A stretch of DNA of 64,000 nucleotides, from the NCBI RefSeq assembly GCF_058153355.1, contig NZ_CM177019.1; one strand, given 5' to 3'. Under the pieces are notes generated by a model, which saw only the letters and a program-made list of their open reading frames with translations, did not search any database and was not told where the DNA came from. A program made the translations under genes and the position numbers. Below, one piece after another: positions 21,923-57,412 of this stretch (position 1 is its first letter; the number at the start of each line of letters is the position of its first letter).

Positions 21923-22297
<375 letters not shown>

Positions 22298-22659
22298 TTA
22301 TGAGAATAAATACTCATTTAAGGGTGAAAACATTTTGCCTGCAAATGATTATCAAGAAATATAACATTATCGAAGTATTCAAATTAACAACTATTAAATA
22401 ATATTAAACATTTTTAACGTAAACATTAAGAATATTCATCTTGTTATCTGTCTGTATTTTAACCAGAATTAAATAAGTATTAGATGCCGTATGAATATCT
22501 CGAAATGTTGCTGTGTATCACATACAAATCATCACCGCAGGACCATAGTATTTACATAAGGTTTGTCCCCCGGAGGTAGTCATCGCAGCAATCGAGTAAA
22601 TTAGCTTCACCACGGTATATTGTTTCCGTAGAATACCCATAATTATAAGAGAGGTTGTT

Positions 22660-47843: not shown

Positions 47844-49243
47844 ACACTCGCCAGCTACTGAGCGTCGGTATCGATATCGGCACTACCACCACCCAGGTGA
47901 TCTTCTCCCACCTGGAGCTGGTTAACCGTGCGGCGGTGTCGCAGGTGCCGCGCTACGAATTCATCAAACGCGAAATTAGCTGGCAAAGCCCGGTGTTCTT
48001 TACCCCTGTCGATAAACTGGGCGGTTTAAAAGAAGCGGAACTGAAAACCTTAATCCTCGAGCAATATCAGGCTGCGGGCATTGCGCCGGAAAGCGTTGAT
48101 TCTGGTGCCATCATCATCACCGGTGAAAGCGCGAAAACCCGCAATGCTCGCCCGGCGGTGATGACGCTCTCTCAGTCGCTGGGCGATTTTGTCGTTGCCA
48201 GCGCTGGGCCGCATCTCGAATCCGTGATCGCCGGTCACGGTGCTGGGGCGCAAACCCTTTCTGAACAACGGTTATGTCGGGTACTGAATATTGACATCGG
48301 CGGTGGCACCGCGAACTACGCTTTGTTCGATGCCGGAAAAATCAGCGGCACTGCCTGCCTTAACGTCGGCGGTCGCCTGCTGGAAACCGACAGCCAGGGG
48401 CGCGTGGTTTACGCTCATAAACCGGGGCAGATGATAGTGGATGAGTGCTTTGGTGCAGGCACTGACGCCCGTTCACTGACCGGCGCGCAGCTGGTGCAGG
48501 TTACCCGGCGGATGGCGGAACTGATTGTCGAAGTGATTGACGGAACGCTCTCGCCGCTCGCGCAGGCATTGATGCAAACCGGTTTGCTGCCCGCAGGTGT
48601 TACGCCCGAAATCATTACGCTTTCTGGCGGCGTGGGCGAATGTTATCGCCACCAGCCCGCTGACCCGTTCTGTTTTGCCGATATTGGCCCGCTTCTGGCA
48701 ACGGCGCTGCATGAGCATCCTCGTCTGCGTGAGATGAACGTGCAGTTTCCAGCGCAAACCGTGCGCGCCACGGTGATTGGCGCGGGCGCACATACTCTTT
48801 CGCTCTCTGGCAGCACAATCTGGCTGGAGGGGGTACAACTGCCGCTGCGCAATTTGCCGGTGGCGATCCCAATTGATGAAACGGATCTGGTGAGTGCCTG
48901 GCAACAGGCGCTGATTCAGCTGGATCTTGATCCCAAAACTGACGCGTACGTGCTGGCGCTTCCCGCCTCGCTGCCTGTGCGTTACGCCGCGGTACTGACG
49001 GTCATCAACGCGCTGGTCGATTTCGTCGCGCGTTTTCCGAATCCGCATCCCCTGCTGGTGGTGGCCGGGCAGGACTTTGGTAAAGCTCTGGGCATGTTGT
49101 TGCGCCCACAGCTACAACAACTCCCGTTGGCAGTCATTGACGAAGTGATTGTCCGCGCGGGGGACTATATCGACATTGGTACGCCTCTTTTTGGCGGATC
49201 GGTTGTGCCGGTGACGGTGAAATCACTCGCATTTCCTTCCTGA
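47840..49243 (+). CDS. eutA: Ethanolamine ammonia-lyase reactivase EutA
   Basis: 467-aa ORF; stop is 12 bp before eutB start. Confidence 0.9.
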   Translation: MNTRQLLSVGIDIGTTTTQVIFSHLELVNRAAVSQVPRYEFIKREISWQSPVFFTPVDKLGGLKEAELKTLILEQYQAAGIAPESVDSGAIIITGESAKTRNARPAVMTLSQSLGDFVVASAGPHLESVIAGHGAGAQTLSEQRLCRVLNIDIGGGTANYALFDAGKISGTACLNVGGRLLETDSQGRVVYAHKPGQMIVDECFGAGTDARSLTGAQLVQVTRRMAELIVEVIDGTLSPLAQALMQTGLLPAGVTPEIITLSGGVGECYRHQPADPFCFADIGPLLATALHEHPRLREMNVQFPAQTVRATVIGAGAHTLSLSGSTIWLEGVQLPLRNLPVAIPIDETDLVSAWQQALIQLDLDPKTDAYVLALPASLPVRYAAVLTVINALVDFVARFPNPHPLLVVAGQDFGKALGMLLRPQLQQLPLAVIDEVIVRAGDYIDIGTPLFGGSVVPVTVKSLAFPS

Positions 49244-52751: not shown

Positions 52752-53804
52752 ATGAAAAAGACCCGTACAGCTAATTTGCACCATCTTTATCATGAACCCT
52801 TACCCGAAAACCTGAAGCTAACGCCGAAGGTCGAAGTGGATAATGTTCATCAACGGCAAACAACGGATGTCTATGAACATGCTTTGACGATTACCGCCTG
52901 GCAGCAGATTTACGATCAGCTGCATCCGGGCAAATTTCATGGTGAATTTACGGAAATTCTGCTCGATGATATTCAGGTTTTCCGTGAATACACGGGGCTG
53001 GCGCTGCGTCAGTCGTGCCTGGTCTGGCCGAATTCGTTCTGGTTTGGCATTCCGGCGACGCGCGGTGAGCAGGGATTTATCGGTTCGCAATGTCTGGGAA
53101 GCGCAGAAATAGCGACGCGCCCTGGTGGAACCGAGTTTGAATTAAGTACGCCGGACGATTACACGATCCTTGGCGTGGTGCTTTCTGAAGATGTCATCAC
53201 CCGGCAGGCTAACTTTTTGCATAACCCGGAAAGGGTGCTGCATATGTTACGTAACCAGTCGGCGCTGGAAGTGAAAGAGCAGCATAAAGCCGCGCTGTGG
53301 GGCTTTGTCCAACAGGCTCTGGCGACATTTTGCGAGAACCCGGAAAATCTCCATCAGCCTGCAGTGCGAAAAGTGCTGGGGGATAATTTGCTAATGGCGA
53401 TGGGGGCGATGCTGGAAGAAGCGCAGCCAATGGTGACGGTGGAAAGCATCAGTCATCAGAGTTACCGTCGGTTGCTTTCCCGCGCCCGTGAATATGTGCT
53501 GGAAAACATGTCCGAACCGGTGACGGTGCTGGACTTGTGTAATCAACTGCACGTCAGTCGCCGCACCTTGCAAAACGCATTTCACGCTATTTTGGGCATT
53601 GGCCCGAATGCGTGGCTGAAACGCATTCGCCTGAACGCCGTGCGCCGTGAACTGATTAGCCCGTGGTCGCAAAGTATGACGGTAAAAGACGCCGCCATGC
53701 AGTGGGGATTCTGGCATCTTGGGCAGTTTGCCACGGATTATCAGCAATTGTTTGCAGAAAAGCCTTCACTGACGCTGCATCAGCGGATGCAGGAACTGGA
53801 GTGA
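52752..53804 (+). CDS. eutR: AraC-family transcriptional activator EutR
   Basis: 350-aa ORF with C-terminal AraC helix-turn-helix. Confidence 0.9.
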
Positions 53805-53880
53805 GGGTGAGGGCCGGATGAGGATGGTGTTTGATCCGGTCCATAGTGAAGTTACAAATTACGTTGAATTGCTATGTATT

Positions 53881-54198
53881 TTATTGCCCAACGGGATAGG
53901 CGATAAACAAACCGACAATTGTCAAAATACACGCCAGCAGGAATACCAACATACAATTTACGCGCTTTCGCGAAATTTTAAATAAATAGCAAAATAGTGT
54001 TGTTACCACGATCACTACCGGGATAGTCATAAAATTAATAACGATGAGTGCTATCAATCCAAAACTTGCTCCTCCACCGTGGGGAATAAAAATGTGTTCT
54101 TCAAAATAAACTTCTATAGCAAATGCCAGCACACATCCCAGAAAACTCATATCCAGATGAGGGTGCCATTTACTTTCTTTATGTGATGTGTCTGACAT
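53881..54198 (-). CDS. Small hydrophobic membrane protein (accessory islet gene 2)
   Basis: 105-aa ORF with about 3 predicted TM segments; locally very AT-rich; 40 bp downstream of the 54239-55501 gene on the same strand. Confidence 0.55.
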   Translation of the reverse strand: MSDTSHKESKWHPHLDMSFLGCVLAFAIEVYFEEHIFIPHGGGASFGLIALIVINFMTIPVVIVVTTLFCYLFKISRKRVNCMLVFLLACILTIVGLFIAYPVGQ

Positions 54199-54238
54199 TC
54201 TTAAATGCTCCCGTGAGCAAACTGGCGCAAAATAATTT

Positions 54239-55501
54239 CTAAGATTGCTGATAAGACGTCGCTGTTGTCCGGCACTCCGGGCAGATAAACGCGTAAATTA
54301 TCCCTTCGCCGTATTGTTCAATATCGGCATAATCCAGTTGCGCAAGAAACATCATTGTGTGGGAACATTGCGGACAGAGAGGATATTCCGCGTCCTGAAT
54401 CCAGGTTGGATGCCCGCCAAGTTGCGAGAAAGAGACAGGTAAAAATGGGTCTGCGGCAAATAACGGTGACCTAAGGTTTCCCTGTCTCATGCTGTTTACA
54501 GGGAGTCGACGCCATTCCGATACATCATCCGGCAGCCAGGCAGGCGGGATATTTTTTGCAGACAAATGAGCGTTACCCTTTGAGTCCATGTAGCCGAAAA
54601 TGGTGCTGTAGGCGGTGCAACATTCGCAAGTCACGACGCGAAAACTGCCGTTATCGCTAAGACCCGTTGCCTTCAGGTCAACGTCGAAAAGATTTGTTAG
54701 TGGCAATGCGCAATTTGGACAGGTATCGTTGCGTTCATCAACAACACGCAAAGCTTCGCAAGACCCGGTGCTTTTCATCTCCAGATGAAAACATTGAGGA
54801 AAATAGAGATTACGCCTTTGATCTTCAGCGGTTAACTCCCAACCGGCCTCATGCGCATATTCTTCAGGCTCGATGTAAAGGGAGCTGCGCCACGGCGGTG
54901 GGCTATTGCGCCAGTGGGCAAAACGTTCAACGACAACGTCATCCCCAATCCATGCCAGACATTGCAGAATACAATTTCTGTTTTCTGCATCATCCTCAAC
55001 CCGTTCTAACAGCCTGTCGCGTACATCTGTGGGGGCGCGGTGGAAAGGCATATAAGAATCATTGTCCAAATCATCGTAAGAGATCCATTCTCTGAAATAG
55101 GCATTCAGATTCGCCTGGGTAAATGCCGCCAGACAAAGGCAAATCTCCTGAGCGAGCTTATATTCACCAGATGCAAAGCGTTCTGTGGCGTAATCAGCCA
55201 TCAGCTGCGCTTGATCGGTGGTCAGTTGTTGATACAGGGCATCTGTGGGAACGGGGCAGGGAGTCCAGTCGATTAACGCATCGAATTTCCGCGGTTGGTG
55301 AATTAATTTCAGCATGACAACCGGATCGCTTAACCCTGCAAACGCATTCACGATCTTTTTGTTTTTCTTGATATATTCGTCGTGCTCACGTTGCTGTTGG
55401 GCCTGCTCGCAGGGCATGCAGTATCCGTTAGTACGCGCTGCGGTTTCCGGAAGAATGGTTGATATACAAGCGGGGCTTTTACAGGGAATACGGTGAGTCA
55501 T
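54239..55501 (-). CDS. Hypothetical protein with N- and C-terminal CxxC zinc-ribbon motifs; C-terminus resembles DUF1963/YwqG family
   Basis: 420-aa ORF with GGAG Shine-Dalgarno 8 nt upstream; motifs CKSPAC...CMPC and LCPQCSHTMMFLAQLDY...FICPECR; C-terminal GGHPTWIQD...P.C..C...M.F.AQL recalled as a DUF1963 signature. Not in the K-12 eutR-hemF interval as I recall it. Confidence 0.6.
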   Translation of the reverse strand: MTHRIPCKSPACISTILPETAARTNGYCMPCEQAQQQREHDEYIKKNKKIVNAFAGLSDPVVMLKLIHQPRKFDALIDWTPCPVPTDALYQQLTTDQAQLMADYATERFASGEYKLAQEICLCLAAFTQANLNAYFREWISYDDLDNDSYMPFHRAPTDVRDRLLERVEDDAENRNCILQCLAWIGDDVVVERFAHWRNSPPPWRSSLYIEPEEYAHEAGWELTAEDQRRNLYFPQCFHLEMKSTGSCEALRVVDERNDTCPNCALPLTNLFDVDLKATGLSDNGSFRVVTCECCTAYSTIFGYMDSKGNAHLSAKNIPPAWLPDDVSEWRRLPVNSMRQGNLRSPLFAADPFLPVSFSQLGGHPTWIQDAEYPLCPQCSHTMMFLAQLDYADIEQYGEGIIYAFICPECRTTATSYQQS

Positions 55502-55639
55502 AGAGGCGCTCCTTGCCTGAGGATATTAAGTCGAAAGAGATTATTATTAGATATTAGGGTGTCACTATGGCACACAAATTAAAACAGCATTAATTTTATG
55601 CCACCAACCGAGGGTTATTTTTCTTTTATTTTCATGATA

Positions 55640-56542
<903 letters not shown>

Positions 56543-57412
56543 TTACCGCTTTCTCGAGTGTGCTTTCTGGTTGTCAAACCAGTGAAAATAACTGATCACG
56601 CCTTCGGCAATCGCTGTGGCGATTTTCTGGCGAAATGCCGCCGTGCCTAACAGCCGCTCTTCTTCCGGGTTGGTGATAAATGAGGTTTCCACCAGCACCG
56701 AAGGAACCGACGGCGATTTCAACACCACAAACGCGGCTTGTTCGGTGTTGCGGCTGTGCAGTTTATGCACCGGCTTAATCTTCTTCAGAATATGCGAGCC
56801 GAGCGTCAGGCTGTTTTTAATAGTATCGGTTTGCACCAGATCAAACAGCACTTGCTGCAATAGGTGATCCTTGTCAGTCGCCTTTTTACCGGCAACTTCA
56901 TCGGCGCGGTTTTCGCGTTCAGACAGGTATTTCGCCATTGCGCTACTTGCCCCACGGTTAGAGAGAGCAAATACCGAAGCACCGGCAGCTTTCGGGTTGG
57001 TAAAGCCATCGGCATGAATTGACATAAACAGATCTGCGCCATGTTTATGGGCGATTTCAACGCGATCGTACAGCGGGATAAACGTATCGCCAGAACGCGT
57101 TAAACGCGCATCAATGCCATGATTACGCAAAATGGAACGGACGTTTTTGGCAATCGCCAGCACCACATGTTTTTCTTTCGATCCATTGCGACCAATCGCT
57201 CCGGTATCAATTCCGCCGTGGCCTGGATCGAGAACAACGACACGTTTGCCGCCGCTTTTTTTGGCTTTCGGCTTACTGTGTCCGTTACTGGTTTTTAAAG
57301 GTTCTTCTTTGGCGATGGCTTGCGACATTCCTGACAACGTCAGGGCAGCCAATCCGGCTTTCAGCACCTGGCGGCGCGAAGTGAGTGTTTTTAGTGGTTT
57401 AAAAGTGCTCAT
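56543..57412 (-). CDS. amiA: N-acetylmuramoyl-L-alanine amidase AmiA
   Basis: 289-aa ORF with Tat-type signal (SRRQVLKAGLAALTL); directly upstream of hemF. Confidence 0.92.
   Translation of the reverse strand: MSTFKPLKTLTSRRQVLKAGLAALTLSGMSQAIAKEEPLKTSNGHSKPKAKKSGGKRVVVLDPGHGGIDTGAIGRNGSKEKHVVLAIAKNVRSILRNHGIDARLTRSGDTFIPLYDRVEIAHKHGADLFMSIHADGFTNPKAAGASVFALSNRGASSAMAKYLSERENRADEVAGKKATDKDHLLQQVLFDLVQTDTIKNSLTLGSHILKKIKPVHKLHSRNTEQAAFVVLKSPSVPSVLVETSFITNPEEERLLGTAAFRQKIATAIAEGVISYFHWFDNQKAHSRKR

Follow-up and report, generated by a model that had tools for sequence, protein, structure and literature searches.

The 64,000-nucleotide window analysed here (one strand, 5' to 3', of contig NZ_CM177019.1 from NCBI RefSeq assembly GCF_058153355.1) carries two minus-strand open reading frames (ORFs) of 420 and 105 amino acids (aa) in the 1,835 bp between the convergent eutR and hemF genes. 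The larger product belongs to the TYPP (TSR4/YwqG/PDCD2L/PDCD2; Pfam DUF1963) superfamily and the smaller one is a putative YpfK protein. The two genes are very probably an ancestral, vertically inherited accessory pair of the Enterobacteriaceae, which was retained in the lineage of the window and lost from nearly all other Escherichia coli by clean deletion. An earlier sequence-only reading of the same DNA had described two genes of these lengths, 40 bp apart on the minus strand, and the ORFs agree with it. It had also proposed them as a candidate horizontally acquired cassette at the kind of site where defence or toxin-immunity pairs sit, and this interpretation was found to be largely wrong.

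The islet DNA is present in 28 of 5,426 complete E. coli genomes, and every match examined sits at the eutR-hemF junction. The empty sites are uniform, with a span of 1,570-1,571 bp in 27 of the 27 rows listed from a 'spread' sample, and in the K-12-type strain J53 only the five letters 'gggag' lie between the eutR TGA and the hemF stop. The sequence-only reading was therefore correct on the adjacency of eutR and hemF in K-12, and the pair is missing from K-12 and also from more than 99% of E. coli.

Evidence for an ancestral origin comes first from gene order in the relatives. In every enterobacterial relative recovered, amiA-hemF is followed at once, across spacers of 40-140 bp, by the TYPP gene in the same orientation, and this synteny spans at least eight enterobacterial genera or species. 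E. albertii and E. fergusonii carry the pair downstream of amiA-hemF, and Kluyvera has the order amiA-hemF-TYPP with YpfK. The order amiA-hemF-TYPP is also found in Yokenella and Superficieibacter, both without YpfK, and in the uncultured enterobacterial metagenome-assembled genome UBA3516. The Citrobacter TYPP gene also lies downstream of amiA-hemF, with an ankyrin gene in between and no YpfK. In genera without the eut operon, maeB takes the position of eutR, and the pair is therefore anchored to hemF and not to eut.

Rearranged and damaged copies were also identified. Salmonella Paratyphi A has the swapped order hemF-YpfK-TYPP (L094:137-1872), and another S. enterica (L093:5001-5576) keeps YpfK together with only a ~240-bp remnant of the TYPP gene, its YpfK having a 12-aa in-frame deletion in helix 2. 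Since the species-representative Salmonella genome was not among the TYPP loci recovered, the TYPP gene seems to be polymorphic within Salmonella. In five isolates of Salmonella Agona, a 75-kb IS15DI resistance island has been described inside the DUF1963 gene (PMC12054066). On an E. fergusonii-type contig (L102:2698-3960) the TYPP gene is split into ORFs of 128 and 289 aa, probably by a frameshift, and the downstream ypfK is intact. Strains can do without the pair, which is readily lost.

The second line of evidence is the divergence of the pair relative to the adjoining core genes. Between the window and E. albertii, the synonymous divergence (dS) of the two genes is 0.62 and 0.47, compared with 0.55 for hemF and 0.62 for amiA. 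The corresponding values against E. coli E2348/69 are 0.22 and 0.12, with 0.31 for hemF, and those against strain 2017-02-2CC are 0.05 versus 0.03-0.10; in the Salmonella comparison dS is saturated for all genes. The flanks of the islet were searched for direct or inverted repeats, tRNA genes and integrases and contain none, and an Rfam scan found no known RNA families. Synteny, parity of dS and lack of mobility marks together argue that presence of the pair is the ancestral state and that the K-12 arrangement arose by deletion. The practical gain is a corrected annotation: what appears to be an islet between core genes is very probably an old resident lost by the reference strain, and the lack of a gene in K-12 is no evidence that others acquired it.

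The ratio of nonsynonymous to synonymous divergence (dN/dS) was found to be 0.12-0.33 for the pair (0.12-0.30 for ypfK), 0.02-0.05 for hemF and amiA, and 0.25 within the lineage of the window (window versus 2017-02-2CC). These ratios indicate purifying selection on both genes, weaker than that on their neighbours.

The window is ~95-96% identical to K-12 across the whole 25 kb compared. At the tmcA-purC region, 38 kb away, the 18 closest complete genomes are 98.2-98.9% identical to it and all others are at most 96.0% identical; these identities place the window in a divergent lineage that is filed under E. coli. The TYPP gene is present in all 18 of these closest genomes, and the pair is therefore a trait of the window's lineage. 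The pair was found in ten mainstream E. coli records as well, four of which are E2348/69. Raised divergence around the islet was considered as a sign of an imported segment and was rejected, since the entire compared segment stands at the same distance from K-12 and the lineage is divergent genome-wide.

The base composition of the islet does not arise evenly from its parts. Its GC content is 0.460, the window as a whole averages 0.532, and no other span of 1,835 bp in the 64 kb is lower (0.08% quantile). As the sequence-only reading had noticed, the downstream gene and the intergenic DNA are AT-rich, and they account for the low value: ypfK stands at 0.384 (1.1% quantile), with values of 0.35-0.45 in the spacers. 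At 0.495 (13% quantile), the TYPP gene is unremarkable and is not the cause. At third codon positions (GC3), ypfK has values of 0.34-0.37 in Escherichia, 0.45-0.47 in Salmonella and 0.53 in Kluyvera.

The 420-aa protein is a member of the TYPP superfamily with the layout of its 'family two'. The structure model has a mean predicted local distance difference test score (pLDDT) of 93.8, with YwqG (1PV5) as the best fold match, and shows a predicted C4 zinc ribbon at residues ~1-31, a HEAT-like helical repeat at ~29-219 and a two-repeat beta domain at 221-420. It thus combines the two-repeat all-beta fold of YwqG with an N-terminal alpha-helical domain fused to it. Burroughs and Aravind (2014; PMC4275035), who defined the superfamily, described 'family two' as TYPP preceded by an uncharacterised alpha-helical domain, with an N-terminal C4 finger of the DksA/TraR type in some members. 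The window protein agrees with this family in its domain order, in having a GGxP motif together with the conserved Gln, and in its paired CxxC motifs, which a subset of the superfamily has. It differs in that its finger has no Pfam DksA/TraR match and that its first repeat carries AGWE, membership being by architecture as described. Among the Pfam families reported for 40 members at E<=0.1 there was neither a DksA/TraR zinc finger nor a MYND domain, and no MYND-type insert was recognised in the model. The DUF1963 suggestion of the earlier reading held: the protein carries a DUF1963-type domain, with a weak and partial Pfam match (E 5.8e-5, aa 359-406, model positions 1-51 of 216). Across the 40 members this match reaches E<=1e-3 in 21 and E<=0.1 in all 40, and the assignment of the protein to the superfamily is sound.

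Conservation among 40 homologues centres on the cysteines and on the second repeat. Cys4 site 1 (C7/C12/C28/C31) and site 2 (C261/C264/C292/C295) are invariant, as are C376, C379 and C407 of site 3, whose fourth residue, C410, is kept in at least 90%. In the GGxPxWxQ motif at 362-369, G362, G363, P365 and Q369 are invariant, and so is Q388. The first repeat has a degenerate AGWE instead of GGxP, with G220 and W221 invariant, and a YQQ(S/T) motif is conserved at the C-terminus. All 33 of the 33 family-invariant residues are present in the window protein. The homologues are of near-constant length (~420-435 aa). Identity to the Firmicute proteins (Paenibacillus, Clostridium and others) is 34-42%, with few indels, and identity to those of Chitinimonas, Verrucomicrobia, Planctomycetes and Shewanella is 36-52%. 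A profile search of the sequences of solved structures gave no significant match, and 1PV5 was not recovered by sequence. Searches of NCBIfam, PADLOC-DB 2.0 and PHROG gave no match for either protein of the pair (0 PADLOC families at E<=1; best PHROG hit not better than E 0.15).

Two sets of relatives can be compared with the 420-aa protein. Bacillus subtilis YwqG (1PV5) is only 12% identical to it and gives no sequence-level match even with the family profile. Neither the zinc ribbon nor the helical-repeat domain is present in YwqG. The 420-aa protein further has a compact second repeat (~62 aa) and Cys4 sites in each of its two repeats. The eukaryotic relatives PDCD2 and Tsr4, the only TYPP proteins that have been characterised, are dedicated chaperones of ribosomal protein uS5 that grip its disordered N-terminus, a eukaryote-specific segment (PMC7736825). 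They share the domain superfamily with the 420-aa protein, and their TYPP domain binds a disordered peptide of one client without catalysis. Unlike PDCD2, the 420-aa protein has no MYND insert; it is related to both at the superfamily level and is not their orthologue, and no ribosomal link was seen. The literature searched held no experiment on any bacterial TYPP/DUF1963 protein. The confident model and the 34-42% identity to Paenibacillus proteins make TYPP family two a tractable entry point to a superfamily whose eukaryotic members are essential ribosomal-protein chaperones.

The 105-aa protein is assigned to Pfam family PF26378 (YpfK) through the precomputed tags of its close homologues. 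With the exception of one 67-aa fragment, the homologues listed at 55-98% identity carry this tag, and the alignment shows common invariant motifs, including FLGC..A...E, IFIP.GGG and LLAC.LTI.GLFIAYPVG. Hydrophobic stretches were found at residues 14-33, 40-76 and 78-105, and AlphaFold2 places helices at 13-32, 44-73 and 77-100; the model is of low confidence (pLDDT 56) and only its helix positions were used. The second loop, at 73-83, is positively charged, which fits an N-in topology. YpfK is a very small family: clustering at 50% identity gives just 8 clusters in a set of 1.84 billion proteins. It is confined to enterobacteria and to this locus, and wherever its context was read, the TYPP gene or a remnant of it was next to it. 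In Yokenella, Citrobacter, Superficieibacter and all non-enterics the TYPP gene has no YpfK with it, and in one Salmonella YpfK is left with only a TYPP remnant. Literature searches on ypfK, STM2452/STM2453, the E2348C locus tags and the hemF/eutR hotspot found nothing relevant. Both families are already catalogued.

Outside the enterics, the TYPP gene stands alone in ~70 loci, including those of 57 Paenibacillus species. Its 318 immediate neighbours fell into 189 clusters, and a conserved neighbour sought in 80 genomes was not found beyond within-genus synteny. Pfam searches on 59 neighbour representatives returned GNAT, SUFU, Macro, TIR, DUF6138 and DUF2625 with no family dominant; this mixture hints at variable regions and names no partner. 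Many Paenibacillus species have the gene at a stable, syntenic position surrounded by ordinary genes for metabolism and transport, and tblastn found no hemF or amiA homologue adjoining it outside the enterics. As separate observations on these loci, in nine Paenibacillus genomes (L025, L052, L062:7431-9098 and six others) the next gene after TYPP, in the same orientation, encodes a DUF6138 protein of ~550 aa, and the 667-aa Paenibacillus protein P0104 is a fusion of TYPP family two to DUF2625. Nothing relevant to DUF2625 or DUF6138 was found in the literature searched.

A mechanism for the pair is proposed tentatively, as something possible rather than probable: the 420-aa protein would be a non-enzymatic binding or escort protein, and YpfK a lineage-specific addition to it. 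No catalytic signature was found in the 420-aa protein, and a non-enzymatic escort is inferred from this together with the precedent of PDCD2/Tsr4. An extended peptide of the client would sit in the conserved GGxP/Gln pocket. The peptide-binding fold, the three predicted structural zinc sites and the repeat scaffold likewise point to a non-enzymatic escort or adaptor as the likeliest role. The identity between the E. coli and Firmicutes proteins extends over the full length, and this, with so few indels, argues for a conserved binding partner. Since no partner is co-encoded in most taxa, the client would probably be a widely conserved cellular protein. YpfK would act as membrane anchor or as client, and its disordered N-terminal tail, in which a KWHPHL motif is conserved, may mediate this. 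A more specific version, in which the bacterial 'family two' proteins are dedicated chaperones for one conserved protein (for example, a component of the ribosome or of RNA polymerase), form the prokaryotic counterpart of PDCD2/Tsr4-uS5, and are tethered or regulated at the inner membrane by YpfK through the KWHPHL tail, is suggested by the fold, by the cross-phylum conservation without a co-encoded partner and by the adjacency of the two genes, and is quite unlikely. Taken as a whole, history and mechanism blended, the combined explanation of an ancestral accessory pair with an escort function is moderately probable.

Several points weigh against this combined explanation. With regard to the history, the mainstream carriers (E2348/69, GF130 and others) may either have retained the pair or have regained it by recombination, and the low GC3 of ypfK in Escherichia is unusual for an old resident gene. 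The dN/dS of the pair, 3-10 times that of hemF and amiA, points to weak constraint. With regard to the mechanism, the putative coupling of the TYPP gene to YpfK is drawn from their adjacency, yet many enterics have a TYPP gene and no YpfK, and three Escherichia genomes have an unrelated 221-aa gene where YpfK would be. The chaperone role is proposed by analogy with the eukaryotic relatives, and the N-terminal extension of uS5, which is the client segment in eukaryotes, is absent from bacteria (PMC7736825).

The junction holds other cargo in some relatives. In E2348/69 (L002:7795-11912) and GF130 (L105:6796-10913), a 1,149-aa SNF2-family helicase and a convergent 223-aa protein lie between the TYPP gene and hemF. 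The best NCBIfam match of the helicase is the SCO1167/SCO6262 family, below cut-off, and its core is ZorD/DpdE-like in PADLOC; the two genes are a possible defence candidate. In strain E7-1N7 (L106:5793-6585), the hemF/TYPP spacer contains a TacA-family antitoxin and a GNAT acetyltransferase, annotated as a TacT-like type II toxin-antitoxin pair. Two members of the window's lineage, 2017-02-2CC (L003:2647-4940) and WL297 (L107:2646-4940), have in place of ypfK TPR/SEL1-repeat proteins, a gene annotated as 'T6SS immunity protein Tli3 family' (T6SS, type VI secretion system) and a 221-aa gene, the last directly downstream of the TYPP gene. By-eye comparison shows that the 221-aa protein (L003:4275-4940, minus strand) and the 223-aa protein (L002:11241-11912, minus strand) are homologous and occupy different positions in the locus. 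They share the motifs FREYWG.QQIN, GC.IYPYKEE.NGGWDYNV.SLFIYECDF and a C-terminal IMIEGNL. Neither has an NCBIfam or PADLOC match, and the 221-aa protein, the only one of the two scanned against Pfam, has no match there.

The two short spacers around the pair have thus repeatedly captured conflict-type cargo in the few Escherichia strains that keep it, and they form a small but real variable site. To this extent the expectation of a defence or toxin-immunity site was right for the junction, which holds such cargo in some relatives, and wrong for the pair itself, which matches no defence model and whose genes are separable. The pair resembles two-gene defence or toxin-antitoxin islets in being small, in sitting at a core-gene junction with presence/absence polymorphism, and in having such cargo beside it in a few strains. 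It differs from them in being old, syntenic across genera, without a defence-model match, and separable into its genes, each of which is found without the other, as distinct from the obligate co-occurrence that marks a toxin-antitoxin or immunity pair.

Among the alternatives for function, an orphan immunity gene was considered, in which the TYPP protein binds and neutralises an incoming T6SS or polymorphic toxin and the locus is a small immunity islet. Immunity-type neighbours occur in relatives (Tli3-family and SEL1/TPR proteins, and an ankyrin-repeat protein in Citrobacter), SUFU-family proteins are found among the Firmicute neighbours, and several Firmicute loci, as judged by eye, have ankyrin-like ORFs after the gene. 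The B. subtilis ywqG gene presumably adjoins the ywqH-L LXG toxin locus. Tandem arrays of YwqG-like genes are also known (PMC4275035), and the pair evolves faster than the core genes. Even so, no linked toxin gene was seen in the ~100 loci read, and length and motifs are very well kept from Proteobacteria to Firmicutes, unlike in fast-diversifying immunity families, with dN/dS well below 1. The stable synteny among metabolic and transport genes in many Paenibacillus is likewise against it, no literature support was found, and this alternative is unlikely.

A decaying relic, with the genes still open in the window's lineage and no selectable function, would account for the repeated loss and damage, namely the deletion in mainstream E. 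coli, the Salmonella remnant, the E. fergusonii split and the island carrying an insertion sequence (IS) in S. Agona (PMC12054066), and for a dN/dS above that of the neighbouring genes. This explanation is very unlikely, since all 18 genomes of the lineage and many genera have both ORFs intact, dN/dS between members of the lineage is still only 0.25, and no family-invariant residue has been lost.

An extension of the amiA-hemF operon, with the TYPP protein, for instance, assisting the assembly or escort of HemF (oxygen-dependent coproporphyrinogen oxidase) or AmiA and with YpfK as a membrane component, would fit the invariable position on the same strand directly downstream of hemF in every enterobacterium examined, the short spacers of 40-140 bp and the lack of a terminator-like site in the spacer. 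However, the TYPP gene is never beside hemF or amiA homologues outside the enterics, most E. coli keep amiA-hemF without the pair, and other cargo lies between hemF and the TYPP gene in some strains, which makes this role highly improbable. The recently acquired horizontal cassette of the sequence-only reading, an anti-phage defence or toxin-antitoxin/toxin-immunity pair, draws on the absence from over 99% of E. coli, the AT-rich ypfK and spacers, and the TacA/TacT-like pair, the SNF2 helicase with its ZorD/DpdE-like core and the Tli3-family immunity gene at the junction in relatives, but it is scarcely credible in view of the synteny across enterobacterial genera, dS equal to that of the flanking hemF and amiA, the lack of repeats, tRNA and integrase, the lack of any PADLOC, PHROG or NCBIfam match for either protein, the stand-alone state of the large gene outside the enterics with each gene found without the other, and the tolerated IS-mediated disruption of the TYPP gene in Salmonella Agona (PMC12054066).

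The layout of the locus, in which the ancestral pair follows amiA-hemF, is given in the table below.

Table. Genes and spacers of the eutR-hemF region, in window coordinates.
Feature	Position	Strand	Remarks
eutR	52752-53804	+	convergent with the pair; context gene
Spacer between the convergent eutR and ypfK stops	53805..53880	.	76 bp; imperfect inverted repeat at ~53811-53842
ypfK	53881..54198	-	105-aa inner-membrane protein, three predicted helices, Pfam PF26378; GC 0.384
Spacer TYPP gene/ypfK	54199..54238	-	40 bp; GGGAG Shine-Dalgarno-like motif upstream of the ypfK ATG
TYPP/DUF1963-superfamily gene	54239..55501	-	420 aa, cytoplasmic product
Spacer hemF stop/TYPP start	55502..55639	-	138 bp, GC 0.348; AAGGAG 7 nt before the ATG
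hemF	55640-56542	-	299 aa from the start annotated in relatives
amiA-hemF	55640..57412	-	same-strand conserved anchor of the pair in all enterobacteria examined

When the three spacers were scanned for promoters and terminators and folded as RNA, nothing rose above shuffled controls. The inverted repeat between the eutR and ypfK stops is not a canonical terminator, and its folding z-score of -0.89 is not significant. The spacer between the TYPP gene and ypfK has no terminator-like site and no significant RNA structure by scan and folding, and the two genes are likely co-transcribed. Between hemF and the TYPP gene, too, the scan found no canonical terminator (folding z-score 0.24), and therefore transcription of amiA-hemF possibly reads through into the TYPP gene.

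Two further features of the window were observed away from the pair. Its most AT-rich 318 bp, with a GC content of 0.28, lie at 22251-22568 in the yffB-ypfM-acrD stretch, which is kept in essentially all E. coli and is ordinary. At the eutA/eutB junction (~49236-49243) the eut operon is uninterrupted in the window, and K-12 has ~6.8 kb there (intZ, yffL-yffS), the CPZ-55 prophage.

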